Part shown: positions 5,582 through 11,848 of the stretch, one piece after another
How the letters are laid out: each line of letters starts with the position of its first letter
How positions within the stretch are numbered: the stretch's first letter is position 1
Virus record (IMG/VR): IMGVR_UViG_3300018031_000005
Span: 1-64,000 of that record
Length of the DNA stretch: 64,000 nt
DNA from: a virus
Strand: one strand, 5' to 3'
Notes under the pieces: model-generated
What the model saw: the letters and a program-made list of their open reading frames with translations, nothing else
Database searches by the model: none
What the model was told of the DNA's origin: nothing
Position numbers and translations under genes: made by a program

Positions 5582-5802
5582 AAAAATATAAATTACTTGG
5601 TCCTAACGGTTTTTATTATTCTGATAAACCAGGTGTTTTAGGAGGACATAAACGAGAAAAAATTTATGGTCGTTTAGATTGTCCTTGTGCATTACGCTGG
5701 ATAAAGAAAGGATTTTATGTGAAGTATCGTGTTTTCTTTGCTTCTGAAGAAGACGCTATTGCTTGTGGATATAGAAAGTGTAAAATATGTATGCTCGGTT
5801 AG
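5557..5802 (+). CDS. Ada-type zinc-binding-domain-like protein
   Basis: LDCPCALRW ... FFASEEDAIACGYRKCKIC resembles the Ada N-terminal Zn-binding domain pattern. The last 10 nt, including the TAG stop, lie inside tRNA-Ile. Confidence 0.45.
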   Translation: METIHEEIKKYKLLGPNGFYYSDKPGVLGGHKREKIYGRLDCPCALRWIKKGFYVKYRVFFASEEDAIACGYRKCKICMLG

Positions 5803-5868
5803 TAGAATGGTTTATCACGCAACCCTGATAAGGTTGAAATGGTGGTTCAATTCCATCACCGAGTACCA
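5793..5868 (+). tRNA. tRNA-Ile (GAT)
   Basis: Acceptor GCTCGGT/ACCGAGT (G1.U72); anticodon arm CAACC-CTGATAA-GGTTG; T arm GGTGG-TTCAATT-CCATC; encoded CCA. Confidence 0.8.
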
Positions 5869-5870
5869 AT

Positions 5871-5945
5871 TGTGAGGTAGCATAATAGTATTGCATCTGC
5901 CTGTTAAGCAGAAAAGTGAAAGTGCGAATCTTTCCCTCACAGCCA
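5871..5945 (+). tRNA. tRNA-Asn (GTT)
   Basis: Acceptor TGTGAGG/CCTCACA; TCTGC-CTGTTAA-GCAGA; T arm GAAAG-TGCGAAT-CTTTC; encoded CCA. Confidence 0.85.
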
Positions 5946-5947
5946 AT

Positions 5948-6022
5948 GGGCTGCTAGTTTATTTAGGAAAATTCCTGGTTTGCATCCAGGGGAGCCCGGA
6001 GCGAAGCCGGGGCGGTCCACCA
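5948..6022 (+). tRNA. tRNA-Ala (TGC)
   Basis: Acceptor GGGCTGC/GCGGTCC with G3.U70; CCTGG-TTTGCAT-CCAGG; T arm CCCGG-AGCGAAG-CCGGG; encoded CCA. Confidence 0.85.
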
Positions 6023-6040
6023 TTTTAAAGAAGGTAACTT

Positions 6041-6277
6041 ATGTTTGTTATTTTAACTTGTTCTTGTTTTCCTGATAAAAAATGTTGTTTGTCATGCCAT
6101 GAGGATGAAGAATTGGGATATTATGGCGAAGAACGTAATGAAATTCCAGAATATGTAAAGAGGAAATTTAATATTGATGGCTATGTAGCAACCTGTATTT
6201 GTAATCAGCCGGAAGAAAAAGAAATAGAAAAGGCAATTGAATATTATTTGAGTAATCATAATGCTCCCTTGGTGTAA
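6041..6277 (+). CDS. Cys-rich hypothetical protein (78 aa)
   Basis: ORF track; AAGGTAACTT upstream. The last 15 nt, including TAA, lie inside tRNA-Arg. Confidence 0.5.
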   Translation: MFVILTCSCFPDKKCCLSCHEDEELGYYGEERNEIPEYVKRKFNIDGYVATCICNQPEEKEIEKAIEYYLSNHNAPLV

Positions 6278-6336
6278 TAGAAACATAAGCGGTTTCTACC
6301 CGTTTGATGAGGGTGCGATTCCTTCAGGGAGTACCA
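6263..6336 (+). tRNA. tRNA-Arg (TCT)
   Basis: Acceptor GCTCCCT/AGGGAGT (G1.U72); AGCGG-TTTCTAC-CCGTT; T arm GAGGG-TGCGATT-CCTTC; encoded CCA. Confidence 0.8.
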
Positions 6337-6345
6337 GAAAATAAG

Positions 6346-6417
6346 GCCGGTTCGCCGAGGCGGTTGTCCGGGCTCATAATCCGAGATATAAAGGTTCAAA
6401 TCCTTTGGCCGGCACCA
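6346..6417 (+). tRNA. tRNA-Met (CAT), short D region
   Basis: Acceptor GCCGGTT/GGCCGGC; CCGGG-CTCATAA-TCCGA (one mismatch); T arm AAAGG-TTCAAAT-CCTTT; encoded CCA. I could not fold the D arm cleanly. Confidence 0.6.
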
Positions 6418-6472
6418 TTTTAAAAAACTTGGGTTGAAAAATTTTAGGAGATATAATAGAATGTAGGTATGT

Positions 6473-6551
6473 GGCCCGTTCTTCTAAATTGGACCAGGAA
6501 ACTAGACTTTCAATCTGGGCAATGAGGGTTCGATCCCCTCACGGGCTACCA
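6473..6551 (+). tRNA. tRNA-Glu (TTC)
   Basis: Acceptor GGCCCGT/ACGGGCT (G1.U72); CTAGA-CTTTCAA-TCTGG; T arm GAGGG-TTCGATC-CCCTC; encoded CCA. Confidence 0.8.
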
Positions 6552-6560
6552 ATTAAATAT

Positions 6561-6639
6561 AAGGAAGTGGAGGAGCTTGGTTTTCCTCGCCTGCCTTGGA
6601 AGCAGGAGATTCACGTGGGTTCAAATCCCACCTTCCTTA
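6561..6639 (+). tRNA. tRNA-Pro (TGG)
   Basis: Acceptor AAGGAAG/CTTCCTT; D arm GAGG-AGCTTGGTTTT-CCTC; CCTGC-CTTGGAA-GCAGG; T arm GTGGG-TTCAAAT-CCCAC; CCA not encoded. Confidence 0.8.
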
Positions 6640-6655
6640 CTAGATTATTATAAGT

Positions 6656-6730
6656 GGCTCCAGAGCTGTAGTAGATTAGCGCAAGCCTTTTAAGCTTGAG
6701 AAGCGGGTGCAATTCCTGATGGAGCTACCA
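6656..6730 (+). tRNA. tRNA-Lys (TTT)
   Basis: Acceptor GGCTCCA/TGGAGCT (G1.U72); CAAGC-CTTTTAA-GCTTG; T loop TGCAATT; encoded CCA. Confidence 0.8.
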
Positions 6731-6809
6731 ACTTAAAAATGAGATTTTATGAATATCGACATGGAAAAGGAGAAAATCATTTAGGTAAAATTTTAATGAA
6801 AGTACGTGC

Positions 6810-6884
6810 GGCCTTGTCTTCTAATAGTTAGGATATTGCCCTCTCAAGGCAATGATCCGGGTGCGAATCCCGGTAAGGCTACCA
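6810..6884 (+). tRNA. tRNA-Glu (CTC)
   Basis: Acceptor GGCCTTG/TAAGGCT (G1.U72); TTGCC-CTCTCAA-GGCAA; T arm CCGGG-TGCGAAT-CCCGG; encoded CCA. Confidence 0.8.
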
Positions 6885-6885
6885 T

Positions 6886-10747: not shown

Positions 10748-10822
10748 GGTTCGCAAGCATTAATAGTGATGCATTTCGCTCTTAACGAAAGGAACAGTTG
10801 GCAGTACACTGGCGGACCACCA
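10748..10822 (+). tRNA. tRNA-Lys (CTT)
   Basis: Acceptor GGTTCGC/GCGGACC; D arm GCAT-TAATAGTG-ATGC; TTTCG-CTCTTAA-CGAAA; irregular T arm CAGT..ACTG; encoded CCA. Confidence 0.7.
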
Positions 10823-10830
10823 GAAAATAT

Positions 10831-10906
10831 AGGCGTATGGCCAAAAGGTTAAGGCTCCTGCCTTACAAGCAGGAAATTGTAGGTTCGAGTCCTACTACGC
10901 CTACCA
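10831..10906 (+). tRNA. tRNA-Val (TAC)
   Basis: Acceptor AGGCGTA/TACGCCT; CCTGC-CTTACAA-GCAGG; T arm GTAGG-TTCGAGT-CCTAC; encoded CCA. Confidence 0.9.
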
Positions 10907-10915
10907 GAAATAAGT

Positions 10916-10993
10916 GTGGCTCTGGCAGAGTTAGTTAACGCATCCGGCTGAAGCCCGGACTATCTCGGTGCGATTCCGGGGGGGGCCACACCA
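10916..10993 (+). tRNA. tRNA-Phe (GAA), with 2 extra nt in a G8 run
   Basis: Acceptor GTGGCTC/GGGCCAC; TCCGG-CTGAAGC-CCGGA; T arm CTCGG-TGCGATT-CCGGG. Two surplus G lie between the T stem and the acceptor 3' strand. Encoded CCA. Confidence 0.7.
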
Positions 10994-10995
10994 AT

Positions 10996-11072
10996 GCTTC
11001 GGTAGTCCAACTGGCAGAGATAAGGGTCTTAAAAGCCCCAAAGTGTGGGTTCAAATCCCACCCGAAGCACCA
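10996..11072 (+). tRNA. tRNA with Leu anticodon TAA, short (class I-like) variable region
   Basis: Acceptor GCTTCGG/CCGAAGC; GGGT-CTTAAAA-GCCC; 5-nt variable region; T arm GTGGG-TTCAAAT-CCCAC; A73; encoded CCA. Confidence 0.7.
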
Positions 11073-11083
11073 TTGAAAATTAA

Positions 11084-11159
11084 GCCGTTGTAGCCCAAAA
11101 GCAGAGGCACATCTCTCAAAAAGATGTTAGTGTTGGTGCGAGTCCATCCAACGGCACCA
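11084..11159 (+). tRNA. tRNA with Leu anticodon CAA, short variable region
   Basis: Acceptor GCCGTTG/CAACGGC; CATCT-CTCAAAA-AGATG; 5-nt variable region; T arm GTTGG-TGCGAGT-CCATC; A73; encoded CCA. Confidence 0.75.
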
Positions 11160-11168
11160 GAAATTAGT

Positions 11169-11245
11169 GGCCAAGTATCCCAAATGGCAGAGGAGTTGGT
11201 CTTAGAAATCAATTGTTGTGAGTTCGAGTCTCACCTTGGCCACCA
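11169..11245 (+). tRNA. tRNA with Leu anticodon TAG, short variable region
   Basis: Acceptor GGCCAAG/CTTGGCC; TTGGT-CTTAGAA-ATCAA; 5-nt variable region; T arm GTGAG-TTCGAGT-CTCAC; A73; encoded CCA. Confidence 0.75.
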
Positions 11246-11252
11246 TTTTTAT

Positions 11253-11328
11253 GGCTCGTTAGCCAAGTGGAAAGGCGGAAATCTGCAAAATTTCTATTAC
11301 ATAGGTTCGATTCCTATACGGGCCTCCA
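11253..11328 (+). tRNA. tRNA-Cys (GCA)
   Basis: Acceptor GGCTCGT/ACGGGCC; GAAAT-CTGCAAA-ATTTC; T arm ATAGG-TTCGATT-CCTAT; discriminator U73; encoded CCA. Confidence 0.85.
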
Positions 11329-11340
11329 TTGAAATTAAAG

Positions 11341-11427
11341 GGGTCAGTGTGCCGAGCAGCGAAGGCAAGAGTCTGTAAAACTCCCACAACTGAAACAACG
11401 TAGGTGCGAGTCCTACCTGACCCACCA
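11341..11427 (+). tRNA. tRNA-Tyr (GTA), class II
   Basis: Acceptor GGGTCAG/CTGACCC; D arm TGCC-GAGCAGCGAA-GGCA; anticodon loop CTGTAAA; long variable arm; T arm GTAGG-TGCGAGT-CCTAC; encoded CCA. Confidence 0.85.
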
Positions 11428-11430
11428 CGT

Positions 11431-11506
11431 GCGTTCTTGGTGTTAATAGCTAGCATATAGCCTTGCCAAGGCTACGGTGCGGGTGCAAGTCCCGCAGAAC
11501 GCTCCA
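11431..11506 (+). tRNA. tRNA-Gly (GCC)
   Basis: Acceptor GCGTTCT/AGAACGC; TAGCC-TTGCCAA-GGCTA; T arm GCGGG-TGCAAGT-CCCGC; U73; encoded CCA. Confidence 0.85.
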
Positions 11507-11525
11507 TTTTAAAAGATTAATTTAT

Positions 11526-11774
11526 ATGAAAGTAGTACATTGTAAAAAAGAACGATATGATGTTTATATTGGTAGACCATCTAAATGGAGAAATCCGTTT
11601 GTGATTGGTAAAGATGGAAATAGAGAAGAAGTCATAGAAAAATATAAAAAGTGGTTATTGAATAATAAAGAACTTATGGCAGATTTATGGGAATTAAGAG
11701 GTAAAATACTAGCATGTTGGTGTGCTCCTCAATCTTGCCATGGCGATGTATTATTAGAGTTAGCAAATAAATGA
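11526..11774 (+). CDS. DUF4326-like protein
   Basis: ORF 11463..11774 trimmed to ATG 11526, because the upstream part overlaps tRNA-Gly. YIGRPSKWRNPF ... LACWCAPQSCHGDVL pattern. The TGA stop overlaps the first 2 nt of the next tRNA. Confidence 0.55.
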   Translation: MKVVHCKKERYDVYIGRPSKWRNPFVIGKDGNREEVIEKYKKWLLNNKELMADLWELRGKILACWCAPQSCHGDVLLELANK

Positions 11775-11848
11775 GCTATTAGTGTTTAACAGCAGCACGT
11801 CGTCCTTCCAAGTCGAAAGTGAGGATGCAACTTCCTCATAGCTCTCCA
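11773..11848 (+). tRNA. tRNA-Gly (TCC)
   Basis: Acceptor GAGCTAT/ATAGCTC; TCGTC-CTTCCAA-GTCGA (one mismatch); T arm GAGGA-TGCAACT-TCCTC; U73; encoded CCA. Confidence 0.8.

Follow-up and report, generated by a model that had tools for sequence, protein, structure and literature searches.

In the elbow of canonical tRNAs, G18 of the D loop bonds with pseudouridine 55 and lies sandwiched between bases 57 and 58 of the T loop, and G19 pairs with C56 to form a flat outer platform. In T-loops outside tRNA, such as those of the FMN and cobalamin riboswitches, position 2 of the loop is a G whose sugar edge is bonded by an adenine inserted between positions 4 and 5. A study of T-loops found that position 2 is usually G and that the intercalating base, in nearly every case an adenine, forms two hydrogen bonds with the G sugar edge (bioRxiv 10.1101/2022.12.26.521914). 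The TYMV-type tRNA-like structure, for which the Rfam consensus gives a T loop UGCAACU and a D-like loop CAGU, has been described as associating its D and T loops in almost the same way as tRNA (PMC4810234). The G19:C56 platform of tRNA is the surface on which the L1 stalk, RNase P and T-box RNAs stack (PMC3664808).

The window, the 64,000-nt stretch of viral DNA analysed here, contains an array of 29 tRNA genes on the plus strand (5793-11848), tightly spaced at 1-10 nt and with an encoded CCA in all but tRNA-Pro(TGG). ARAGORN or Infernal supports 27 of the 29 genes. ARAGORN reports 22 tRNAs at default settings and gains Thr-TGT and Gly-TCC at a lowered threshold, and Infernal with RF00005 gains Ile-TAT (49.8 bits), Phe-GAA (32.2 bits), Gly-TCC (32.2 bits) and Thr (37.7 bits), with Lys-TTT at 26 bits, below threshold. 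Neither program matched the putative genes for tRNA-His(GTG) and tRNA-Lys(CTT), whose cloverleaf folds were drawn by hand only. Also within the array, on the same strand, lies a class A bacterial RNase P RNA without P13/P14 (10407-10724, 165.7 bits). Searches gave no close relative of this phage.

The array divides into elbow classes, as the preliminary description had proposed from D-loop and T-loop strings that are all present in the sequence. Class 1, with the canonical G18 G19/U55 C56 elbow (T loop TTCRANY, D loop with GG), had been counted at 13 RNAs, which are 12 tRNAs and the 2991 element. The tRNAs are Ile(GAT) (5793-5868; D loop AATGGTTTA, T loop TTCAATT; found by both ARAGORN and Infernal), Met(CAT) (6346-6417; U55 C56 and TTCAAAT with an odd 3-nt D loop, AGG, and an Infernal score of just 23.3 bits), Glu(TTC) (6473-6551; AAATTGGACCA, TTCGATC), Pro(TGG) (6561-6640; AGCTTGGTTTT, TTCAAAT), Ser(TGA) (7794-7880; TTCGACT) and Ser(GCT) (7883-7975; TTCGATT), both with a long variable arm, Asp(GTC) (8826-8900; AATGGCTA, TTCAATT), Gln(CTG) (10260-10335; AATTTGGTA, TTCGATT), Val(TAC) (10831-10906; AAAAGGTTAA, TTCGAGT; 71.8 bits), Leu(TAA) (10996-11072; CAACTGGCAGA, TTCAAAT) and Leu(TAG) (11169-11245; CAAATGGCAGA, TTCGAGT), both short and the former noted to have no long variable arm, and Cys(GCA) (11253-11328; AAGTGGAAA, TTCGATT).

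Class 2 comprises 11 tRNAs with the T loop TGCRANT and a D loop that has AG and no GG. Its members are Asn(GTT) (5871-5945; D loop AATAGTA, T loop TGCGAAT; 66.9 bits), Arg(TCT) (6263-6336; AATAGAA, TGCGATT), Lys(TTT) (6656-6730; TAGTAGAT, TGCAATT; folded by hand, with G8 for U8), Glu(CTC) (6810-6884; AATAGTTA, TGCGAAT), Trp(CCA) (7160-7234; AACAGTA, TGCAAAT), Ile(TAT) (9174-9251; AAGTAGTTAT, TGCAAGT; A8), Phe(GAA) (10916-10993; AGTTAGTTA, TGCGATT), Leu(CAA) (11084-11159; short; CAAAAGCAGA, TGCGAGT), Tyr(GTA) (11341-11427; long variable arm; GAGCAGCGAA, TGCGAGT), Gly(GCC) (11431-11506; TAATAGCTA, TGCAAGT) and Gly(TCC) (11773-11848; TTAACAGCA, TGCAACT). The AG and the loss of GG hold in all 11, but the pyrimidine said to precede AG is present in ten, tRNA-Leu(CAA) having A. 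Most class-2 genes score 50-67 bits against RF00005; tRNA-Glu(CTC) also gives a 27-bit match to the TYMV-type tRNA-like structure model RF00233. Between its T stem and acceptor stem, the tRNA-Phe gene has eight consecutive G, two of them surplus.

Class 3 (G18 A19/U55 U56; T loop TTTRAWT, D loop with GA) consists, as first described, of Arg(ACG) (6886-6960; AATGAACA, TTTGATT), Thr(TGT) (9098-9171; AACGATA, TTTAATT) and Gln(TTG) (10182-10258; AATTTGATA, TTTGAAT). Three further variants, likewise recognized at the outset, also carry G55: Ala(TGC) (5948-6022; ATTTAGGA, AGCGAAG, with A54; 37.7 bits), the putative His(GTG) (9015-9092; AAAGTCAACGA, TGTGAGT, with U56 and a G-1:C73 pair) and the putative Lys(CTT) (10748-10822; TAATAGTG, the aberrant T loop GGCAGTA with G54 G55 C56). 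Class 2 supplies the sole array genes for Asn, Trp, Phe, Tyr and Gly, and with the G55 variants counted, Lys, His and Ala likewise have no other gene in the array.

The D-loop and T-loop changes in the array are coordinated and compensatory. All 14 G55 tRNAs lack the canonical GG and have AG instead, placed at 18-19 by Infernal, with the assignment in tRNA-Ala ambiguous because Infernal sets its GG there. Among the 29 tRNAs, the 18:55 pairs are 15 G:U and 14 A:G with none mixed (Fisher 1.3e-8), and the 19:56 pairs are 25 G:C, three A:U and one G:U (Fisher 0.001). A register-free comparison of GG anywhere in the D loop with base 55 gives counts of 12/1/3/13 (p = 1.2e-4). The loop register of the preliminary description is borne out by the RF00005 alignment, in which class 2 sets AAUAGUA on the consensus AaUGGUA and UGCGAAU on UUCgAaU, yielding A18, G19 and G55, and class 3 comes out as G18, A19 and U56. 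As AG occurs by chance in approximately 70% of shuffled D loops, the placement of A18 rests on this alignment, on the loss of GG and on examples like the Thr arm from Saccharibacteria described below. The exchange is directly visible between paralogues, from G19:C56 to A19:U56 in Gln-CTG versus Gln-TTG, the pair first pointed out, and likewise from G18:U55 to A18:G55 in Leu-TAG versus Leu-CAA. The earlier proposal that about half of the array swaps its elbow contacts in a coordinated way is thus right as to the coordination, but class 2 does not replace both contacts: only 18:55 is altered and G19:C56 is kept, and in class 3 only 19:56 is altered. Mean identity is 0.58 in class 1, 0.57 in class 2 and 0.56 across classes, with no clustering by overall similarity; together with the splitting of isoacceptor paralogues across classes, this indicates that class 2 does not represent a single family of recent duplicates.

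The same covariation extends well beyond this phage. Scans of IMG/VR and GTDB genomes with a two-T-arm pattern gave at least 120 matches in each, and A18:G55 is widespread both in arrays of unrelated phages and in those of bacterial MAGs. Across 2,628 distinct tRNAs, AG is found in 692 of the 708 with G55 C56 (97.7%; GG without AG in only two), GG in 1,793 of the 1,822 with U55 C56 (98.4%), and GA without GG in 21 of the 25 with U55 U56. G55 tRNAs retain T54 (91%), A58 (94%), R57 (100%) and T60 (86%), and G55 almost never occurs on tRNA-Ser. Its frequency in an unbiased sample of phage arrays is 2%, yet some arrays are wholly G55 (L079, 18/18; L121, 18/18; L180, 16/16). Contigs with G55 arrays are assigned to many phyla, and near-all-G55 arrays cluster in those labelled Verrucomicrobiota. 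Our literature search found no prior description of an A18:G55 tRNA elbow, and this widespread swap is seemingly undescribed so far.

Judged from gene context, A18:G55 appears to be native to housekeeping tRNAs of a Saccharibacteria genome. One contig (L176) has the order trmD, tRNA-Tyr, tRNA-Thr, rpmG, tRNA-Trp and, farther along, rplJ and rplL, and all three of these tRNAs, near ribosomal protein genes, are A18:G55. The tRNA-Thr of this contig has a D arm, TAGCTCAGTTAGTTAGAGC, that departs from the archetypal bacterial one only in carrying A for G18. Native A18:G55 tRNAs are mixed with canonical ones in this contig, in a second from Saccharibacteria (L258) and in one from Omnitrophota (L292). 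The isoacceptors differ from those of the window, where G55 includes Asn, Lys, Gly and Phe: Cys and Leu-TAA are G55 in the Saccharibacteria loci and canonical in the window, and Thr is G55 there (GGT isoacceptor) and class 3 here (TGT).

In light of the covariation, its generality, the native use and the retained T-loop hallmarks, the class-2 genes are probably functional tRNAs that build the elbow in a second, structurally equivalent way. With T54, C56, R57, A58 and Y60 retained, G at 55 and A18 offered in place of G18, the class-2 elbow would adopt the generic T-loop configuration of a position-2 G with an intercalating adenine, and it resembles the TYMV-type structure in both its UGC T loop and the AG of its D-like loop. 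The three-dimensional contact itself, aminoacylation and decoding are inferences, as would be any gain in fitness. Pseudouridine cannot be formed from G55, a point of chemistry already made in the preliminary description, and 2'-O-methylation of G18 should be impossible as well, so folding of the class-2 elbow would be independent of those host enzymes. Because class 2 keeps G19:C56, the platform for the L1 stalk and RNase P would be unchanged, which weakens the earlier suggestion of altered recognition by both (PMC3664808). In class 3 the platform pair G19:C56 would simply be exchanged for another Watson-Crick pair, A19:U56; engineered G19A/C56U double mutants of E. coli tRNA-Leu or of a viral tRNA-like structure did not regain activity, according to the work of Du and Wang (2003) as cited in PMC8127992, so complementarity of sequence is no guarantee of function. 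Some genes may be decaying, given the aberrant T loop of Lys-CTT, the G run of Phe, the Met D arm and the A8/G8 substitutions, and structural equivalence alone leaves the 100% G55 arrays and the avoidance of tRNA-Ser unexplained.

Those wholly G55 arrays hint at directional pressure, and A18:G55 could have been selected for depriving host factors that target G18 or U55 of their substrates or recognition elements, a reading we consider possible but doubtful. Speculatively, such factors might include the pseudouridine synthase TruB, the Gm18 methyltransferase TrmH and T-loop-cutting toxins, and tRNAs of phage and mobile arrays would then need no host modification to fold and would withstand attacks directed at tRNA. 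The lack of a pseudouridylation site at G55 fits, as does the presence of A18:G55 in genome-reduced Saccharibacteria; the CdiA-CT E479 toxin cleaves the T loop at the junction of the conserved T and pseudouridine (PMC9086364), and horizontally acquired tRNA arrays are reportedly induced with rtcB under translational stress (PMC8421152). Ro60/TROVE and RtcB RNA-repair genes often adjoin G55-rich arrays (the window, L220, L180, L196, L199, L253, L289, L121 and L157), but Ro60 also adjoins G55-free ones (L360, L335), and the half of the window array that stays canonical would remain exposed.

Somewhat less likely, the class-2 phage tRNAs mirror an elbow dimorphism in the tRNA set of their own host, reflecting compatibility with host enzymes rather than a phage strategy. 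Both the mixed native sets of Saccharibacteria and Omnitrophota and the Verrucomicrobiota cluster are consistent with this; however, the window isoacceptors are unlike the Saccharibacteria set, G55 arrays are spread over many phyla, and no close relative of the phage turned up.

It is improbable that the non-canonical elbows have co-evolved with the reduced RNase P RNA encoded by the phage, itself a reader of the tRNA elbow, which would process such tRNAs preferentially. Class A RNase P RNA does occur within the window array and, at the Rfam gathering score, within five other phage arrays (L099, L321, L108, L122 and L081), with a sub-threshold match in L127; all of these arrays include G55 tRNAs, and none turned up among the 104 arrays of the unbiased sample that lack G55 (one-sided Fisher 0.029). 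The statistic is weak, and most loci were picked for G55. However, RNase P stacks on the platform that class 2 keeps (PMC3664808), no RNase P RNA lies within the stretch fetched for the 100% G55 arrays examined, and the tight spacing with encoded CCA already accounts for extra RNase P demand. Degenerating pseudo-tRNAs or a wrong loop register, suggested by a few aberrant members (Lys-CTT, Phe and the undetected His), are highly improbable, being contradicted by perfect two-site covariation in 14 window genes and approximately 700 further sequences and by the retention of T54, A58, R57 and G19:C56, neither of which random decay would give, by the same register emerging independently from Infernal, and by native use amid ribosomal protein genes.

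The A18:G55 elbow is not the phage peculiarity that the preliminary description had considered possible: widespread in phage and MAG arrays and native to certain uncultured bacteria, among them Saccharibacteria, it is neither specific to this phage nor phage-confined. The variant would not be this phage's own invention but part of a widespread pool of tRNAs in phage and mobile-element arrays, and some bacterial lineages use it natively.

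The tRNA genes of the window fall into classes defined by the bases that meet at the elbow, the corner of the L-shaped tRNA where the D loop (positions 18 and 19) contacts the T loop (positions 55 and 56). Every tRNA was segmented by hand, and each loop string was checked as occurring once in the window. Twelve genes combine the T loop TTCRANY with GG in the D loop (class 1), 11 combine TGCRANT with AG and no GG (class 2), and three, Arg-ACG, Thr-TGT and Gln-TTG, combine TTTRAWT with GA (class 3). G55 is also found in Ala (AGCGAAG), His (TGTGAGT) and Lys-CTT (GGCAGTA), giving 12 genes with the canonical G18 G19/U55 C56 elbow, 14 with A18/G55 and 3 with A19/U56. 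Infernal alignment places AAUAGUA on the consensus AaUGGUA and UGCGAAU on UUCgAaU (Asn, Glu-CTC, Arg-TCT, Trp and Ile-TAT), and for class 3 it aligns AAUGAAcA and AACGAUA together with UUUGAUU and UUUAAUU (Arg-ACG and Thr). On this register, class 2 sets A18 against G55 and keeps G19:C56, and class 3 sets A19 against U56 and keeps G18/U55. The preliminary description, whose quoted loop sequences are all present in the window, had proposed that about half of the array replaces both elbow contacts in a coordinated way; its loop register is borne out by the alignment and its structural reading is right in essence, except that class 2 retains G19:C56.

The covariation is complete at the first contact. 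At 18:55, 15 genes have G:U and the other 14 have A:G, and mixed combinations are absent (Fisher 1.3e-8). At 19:56, 25 genes have G:C, 3 have A:U and a single one has G:U (p = 0.001). A register-free test relating any GG in the D loop to the base at 55 gives p = 1.2e-4, and with two hand-folded genes removed (15 versus 12 genes) the 18:55 association is still perfect. Compensation is visible directly in paralogue pairs: the two Gln genes show differences at 19 and 56, and Leu-TAG carries CAAATGGCAGA with TTCGAGT versus CAAA-AGCAGA with TGCGAGT in Leu-CAA. For several genes the nearest relative is such an isoacceptor of the other class (Glu-TTC/Glu-CTC, Gln-CTG/Gln-TTG, Arg-TCT/Arg-ACG and Leu-TAG/Leu-CAA). 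Two class-1 genes have an average identity of 0.58 and two class-2 genes one of 0.57, against 0.56 for a pair taken across the classes, a lack of clustering that rules out class 2 as one recent duplication family. T54-A58, purine 57 and G53:C61 are all kept in 11 of the 14 G55 tRNAs, the exceptions being Ala (A54), Lys-CTT (G54, G58) and Gly-TCC (A53:U61). These conserved T-loop hallmarks, along with the same covariation in a large pooled sample (below), rule out pseudogenes, just as the Infernal alignment rules out a register artefact. The elbow pattern of the window is real and highly non-random.

Other irregularities occur in the same molecules. Four G55 tRNAs lack U8, a near-invariant base in tRNA: Ile-TAT (9174-9251), His (9015-9092) and Lys-CTT (10748-10822) have A8, and Lys-TTT (6656-6730) has G8. 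The first D-loop position is T in both Lys-CTT and Lys-TTT, where 8:14 may represent a second tertiary covariation. The tRNA-Phe gene (10916-10993) has a run of eight G between T stem and acceptor stem, which could reflect two surplus bases, an acceptor stem of 8-9 bp or a homopolymer assembly error. The A54 G55 loop AGCGAAG is shared by the window Ala gene (5948-6022) and an Asp tRNA of another phage array (L321, 2870-2948), and further arrays (L277, L196 and L099) contain the T loops AGCGTTA/AGCGTCA and ATCGTTC, in which 54:58 is seemingly A:T instead of T:A.

The 29 tRNA genes, all on the + strand, occupy 6.1 kb of the window (5793-11848; approximately 4.8 per kb) and cover all 20 amino acids. 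The window (33.8% G+C) is part of a 168,558-bp metagenomic contig (ENA ERZ27267951 k141_1141138) with phage-type genes encoding a portal, a tail tape-measure protein, an intein-bearing ribonucleotide reductase, PhoH, ThyA and DHFR; among ten large proteins, PHROGs recognised only the portal. ARAGORN at default settings detects 22 of the tRNAs, a lower threshold adds Thr-TGT and Gly-TCC, and Infernal with RF00005 brings in Ile-TAT and Phe-GAA and, with a score below threshold, Lys-TTT. One or both programs recognise 27 of the 29 as cloverleaves in which the acceptor stem has 7 bp, the T stem 5 bp, and the T and anticodon loops 7 nt each; His and Lys-CTT were detected by neither, and their cloverleaves come from hand folding. 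A 3' CCA is encoded in 28 of the 29 (the exception is Pro, 6561-6640), and many neighbouring genes lie 1-10 nt apart, so that one RNase P cut would nearly complete the upstream 3' end. In gene number, density and orientation the array qualifies as an L-array or array unit, defined as at least 20 co-oriented tRNA genes at a density of at least 2 per kb (PMC4758250).

Protein genes within the array encode an HNH-type endonuclease (7411-7794), of which 20 or more other arrays contain relatives, an RF-1/ArfB-like GGQ domain protein (7999-8358), a peptide deformylase (9747-10196) and a DUF4326 protein (11526-11774). An apparent coding region at 9287-9640 is interrupted at a TTTT run near 9361 and resumes in another frame, a break that a frameshift or an error in sequencing might explain. 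Two large intein-bearing genes with LAGLIDADG endonuclease domains lie at 20110-23970 and 27938-31018, one a class II-like ribonucleotide reductase and the other encoding a 1,026-aa protein. A Ro60 orthologue with TROVE and vWA domains is encoded at 1223-2890 (+ strand). Approximately 100 nt downstream lies a tRNA-like element (2991-3074, + strand) whose T loop, TTCAAAC, is canonical and whose D-like loop contains GG. It is a possible Y RNA (YrlA-like) partner of Ro60, although the Rfam YrlA model does not match it.

The array also contains a bacterial class A RNase P RNA (10407-10724, + strand; 165.7 bits), which is short (318 nt) and without P13/P14. Similarly reduced RNase P RNAs score above the Rfam threshold in five other IMG/VR phage arrays (L099 5694-5990, L321 2590-2867, L108 5410-5721, L122 212-533 and L081 3617-3905), and a sub-threshold match lies at L127 461-767. 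All of these arrays, including the window, contain G55 tRNAs. No report of a phage-encoded RNase P RNA was found in the literature searched, a collection that covers few subscription journals. As a separate observation, tmRNA genes lie inside G55-rich phage arrays at L106 6180-6529, L062 7094-7530 and L108 4423-4727.

Relatives of the phage were sought in IMG/VR through proteins of the array or its surroundings (deformylase, RF-1 domain protein, Ro60 and PhoH). The 48 loci found through these neighbouring proteins hold 37 tRNAs, none with G55, and include no close relative of the phage; one of the 37, an Arg-ACG at L010, has the class-3 elbow. Searched against 5.8 billion proteins, the deformylase matches the same contig and then only proteins of at most 47% identity on contigs without tRNAs. 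In a blastn comparison with 50,697 deposited phage genomes, the window array and one G55-rich IMG/VR array matched canonical tRNAs over short stretches only, and no cultured phage with G55 tRNAs emerged; BLAST of each window tRNA against approximately 2,700 collected tRNAs gave arm-length matches only and no orthologous array. The window contains three short tRNA-Leu genes (10996-11072, 11084-11159 and 11169-11245; 76-77 nt, no long variable arm, D loop CAAnnRGCAGA, A73) of a family that recurs in many phage and MAG arrays, with 119 short versus 67 long tRNA-Leu in G55-containing arrays among the matches listed. The cultured Vibrio phage phi-ST2 has this short tRNA-Leu family in common with the window, but that phage is entirely U55.

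The elbow itself is widespread. A scan of IMG/VR for a pair of G55-type T arms spaced by the length of one tRNA (GGTGCRANTCC N{58,88} GGTGCRANTCC) found at least 120 loci. Among the matches listed, ARAGORN predicts 1,032 tRNAs, of which 362 have TGC T loops; G55 C56 goes with AG in the absence of GG in 341, and U55 C56 goes with GG in 579. In the pooled, de-duplicated set of 2,628 tRNAs among the matches listed, AG is present in 692 of 708 tRNAs with G55 C56 (GG without AG in 2), GG in 1,793 of 1,822 with U55 C56, and GA without GG in 21 of 25 with U55 U56. Where a G55 tRNA does have GG, this lies at positions 15-16 and precedes the AG, as in AGGAGCA. The pooled G55 tRNAs among the matches listed have T54 in 91%, A58 in 94%, a purine at 57 in 100% and T60 in 86%.

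An unbiased scan of phage arrays, with position 55 left free (GGGTNCRANTCC...GGTNCRANTCC), places these numbers in proportion. G55 is found in 22 of 1,096 tRNAs (2.0%) and in 12 of 98 arrays of at least three tRNAs, and no array of at least eight tRNAs in this sample reaches 50% G55; the window, at 44-48%, therefore stands at the extreme of ordinary phage arrays. In the same sample, 18 tRNAs with C at 55-56 have a D loop that contains GG; the T loop reads TCC in 17 of them. Among the listed matches of the targeted scans are arrays that are wholly G55: L079 (18/18), L121 (18/18), L180 (16/16) and L114 (15/15). G55 is seen in almost every isoacceptor, with tRNA-Ser as the one clear exception: among the matches listed, arrays with at least two G55 genes have G55 in 5 of 71 tRNA-Ser versus 696 of 1,374 others (Fisher 1.3e-14), and both Ser genes of the window are canonical, as this rule predicts. 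Seryl-tRNA synthetase makes a backbone contact at C56 and reads tRNA shape (PMC4666401), and we suggest that such contacts may lie behind the exclusion of Ser.

The A18:G55 elbow is also found in bacterial genomes. The same scan of one genome per GTDB species found at least 120 loci; among the matches listed, 50 of 120 are without tRNA and represent chance matches, and the remaining 70 hold 572 tRNAs, 275 with AG and G55 C56 and 236 with GG and U55 C56. Many of the matches listed are dense arrays in MAG contigs, mostly labelled Verrucomicrobiota, with Myxococcota, Planctomycetota and others, and the cultured strain Archangium lansingense has one in its chromosome. Some are not arrays. A 74-kb Saccharibacteria contig (L176) has the order trmD, tRNA-Tyr, tRNA-Thr(GGT), rpmG (L33), tRNA-Trp, an ORF, yceG, a DJ-1 family gene, rplJ and rplL, in which Tyr, Thr and Trp are all A18:G55 without encoded CCA and a nearby Val is canonical. 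The Thr gene, with D arm TAGCTCAGTTAGTTAGAGC and T arm GCGGTGCAACTCCGC, has the archetypal bacterial arms with G18 to A and U55 to G as sole changes. In a second Saccharibacteria contig (L258) and an Omnitrophota contig (L292), an adjacent long tRNA-Leu(TAA) and tRNA-Cys are G55 and neighbouring Pro, Gly or Val genes are canonical, an adjacency that resembles the E. coli glyW-cysT-leuZ operon.

These genes indicate that housekeeping tRNAs use the A18:G55 elbow in at least one bacterial lineage, which lends indirect support to the view that the elbow would work in translation. They also leave some probability to the scenario that the preliminary description had set against its own reading, in which the elbow would be a lineage trait of this phage's own host. 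Its framing of the elbow as a phage peculiarity does not hold, given at least 120 IMG/VR loci and the bacterial genomes; the alternative tRNA elbow is widespread and apparently undescribed, and the window exemplifies it strongly.

The structure of the T loop suggests how this elbow would work. The residue at position 18 of a canonical tRNA inserts between bases 57 and 58 of the T loop and bonds pseudouridine 55, and G19:C56 forms an exposed platform (PMC4810234), which provides the stacking surface for the L1 stalk, RNase P and T-box RNAs (PMC3664808). In T-loop motifs outside tRNA, the second position is usually G, the intercalating base, almost exclusively adenine, is joined to the sugar edge of this G by two hydrogen bonds, and the functional consensus is YGNRA, with UGHAA favoured (bioRxiv 10.1101/2022.12.26.521914). 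The generic five-base motif (U1 paired to A5, G or U at 2, purine at 4) is present as TGCRA in all 11 class-2 T loops, and class 2 would thus be the generic T-loop arrangement placed in a tRNA. Judging from the covariation, A18 from the D loop would stack between T-loop positions 4 and 5 and bond the sugar edge of G55; we infer both this three-dimensional contact and the activity of class-2 tRNAs. As G19:C56 is kept, class 2 should still dock with the L1 stalk, RNase P and T-box RNAs. What class 2 would lose is the site of pseudouridine 55, which cannot form in G55 tRNAs, and presumably that of G18 methylation, as Gm18 should not form in A18 tRNAs.

Comparison with known systems sets out what is distinctive. 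The window genes share with canonical tRNA the cloverleaf, 7-nt T loop, T54-A58, R57, G53:C61 and G19:C56 platform, and most class-2 genes score 50-67 bits with RF00005; they differ in G55 with A18 in 14 genes and A19:U56 in 3. Class 2 resembles the T-loops of FMN and cobalamin riboswitches in U1, G2, purine 4, A5 and an adenine donated from another loop, but stands in a tRNA, where a position-2 U with an intercalating G is otherwise the rule, and its three-dimensional contact is a predicted one. The tymovirus valine-accepting tRNA-like structure (RF00233), with consensus T loop UGCAACU and D-like loop CAGU, has the same AG/GC combination as class 2, and its D/T association has been described as almost the same as in tRNA (PMC4810234). 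That element, however, is a 3'-terminal structure of plant RNA viruses with a pseudoknotted acceptor arm, whereas the window has cloverleaf tRNA genes with ordinary acceptor stems in a DNA phage. The window tRNAs are not RF00233 members, the best match (Glu-CTC) scoring 27.1 bits against a threshold of 40.

Bacterial tRNAs without G18, G19, U55 and C56 have been described as the non-proteinogenic tRNA-Gly of Staphylococcus (PMC4574755). Those have lost both contacts (for example, U18 and U19), are Gly-UCC only and are diverted from the ribosome, whereas the window G55 genes keep G19:C56, covary at 18:55 and serve many amino acids; with G19:C56 kept and 13 of 14 G55 anticodons other than Gly-UCC, they are not of the staphylococcal type. 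The window is like the long horizontally transferred L-arrays and phage tRNA clusters in its dense co-oriented array, in the HNH-type endonuclease ORF embedded there, and in having encoded CCA and neighbours of the Ro60/RtcB type (PMC8421152, PMC4758250). The papers examined on such arrays make no mention of T loop or elbow, and elbow dimorphism is a new descriptor of them.

Several explanations may account for why the elbow is favoured. It might fold without host modification enzymes, which would suit phage tRNAs and genome-reduced bacteria, or it might escape factors that read the canonical T loop, such as the documented toxin that cuts between T and pseudouridine (PMC9086364). Alternatively, redundant genes might have drifted to it as a neutral second optimum. 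Gene context is a suggestive pointer: Ro60/TROVE and RtcB genes flank many G55-rich arrays (for example, L220, L180, L196, L199, L253, L289 and L121), as in the window, and a link to translational stress and rtcB has been reported for horizontally acquired tRNA arrays (PMC8421152), but Ro60 also flanks arrays without G55, and half of the window's own tRNAs are canonical. A joint reading, which we put forward tentatively and consider rather unlikely to hold in full, is that A18:G55 would be a second, modification-independent corner design, native in some genome-reduced bacteria (for example, Saccharibacteria) and spread by phage or mobile arrays as stress- or attack-proof spare sets with Ro60/RtcB repair genes and phage-borne miniature RNase P RNAs. 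It would be selected for needing no TruB or TrmH and for escaping enzymes and toxins that read the canonical T loop, with Ser excluded as seryl-tRNA synthetase reads elbow shape.

Both G18 and U55 count as near-invariant bases of tRNA, and pseudouridine 55 counts as a modification that is universal. With the A18:G55 elbow, nature has a second solution, found in approximately 700 distinct sequences, in almost every isoacceptor but Ser, in whole phage arrays and in housekeeping genes of an uncultured phylum. It is apparently undescribed: in a full-text collection that covers few subscription journals, no account of A18:G55 tRNAs from phages, arrays or Patescibacteria was found, and an earlier one may exist. 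The variant offers a ready-made test of what the G18-pseudouridine 55 contact, TruB and Gm18 do, and elbow folding free of modification could serve orthogonal tRNAs in synthetic biology. It has consequences for tRNA gene annotation and for host prediction by tRNA matching, and it provides a simple sequence marker with which to ask if array tRNAs are made to be independent of, or resistant to, tRNA-directed enzymes of the host.
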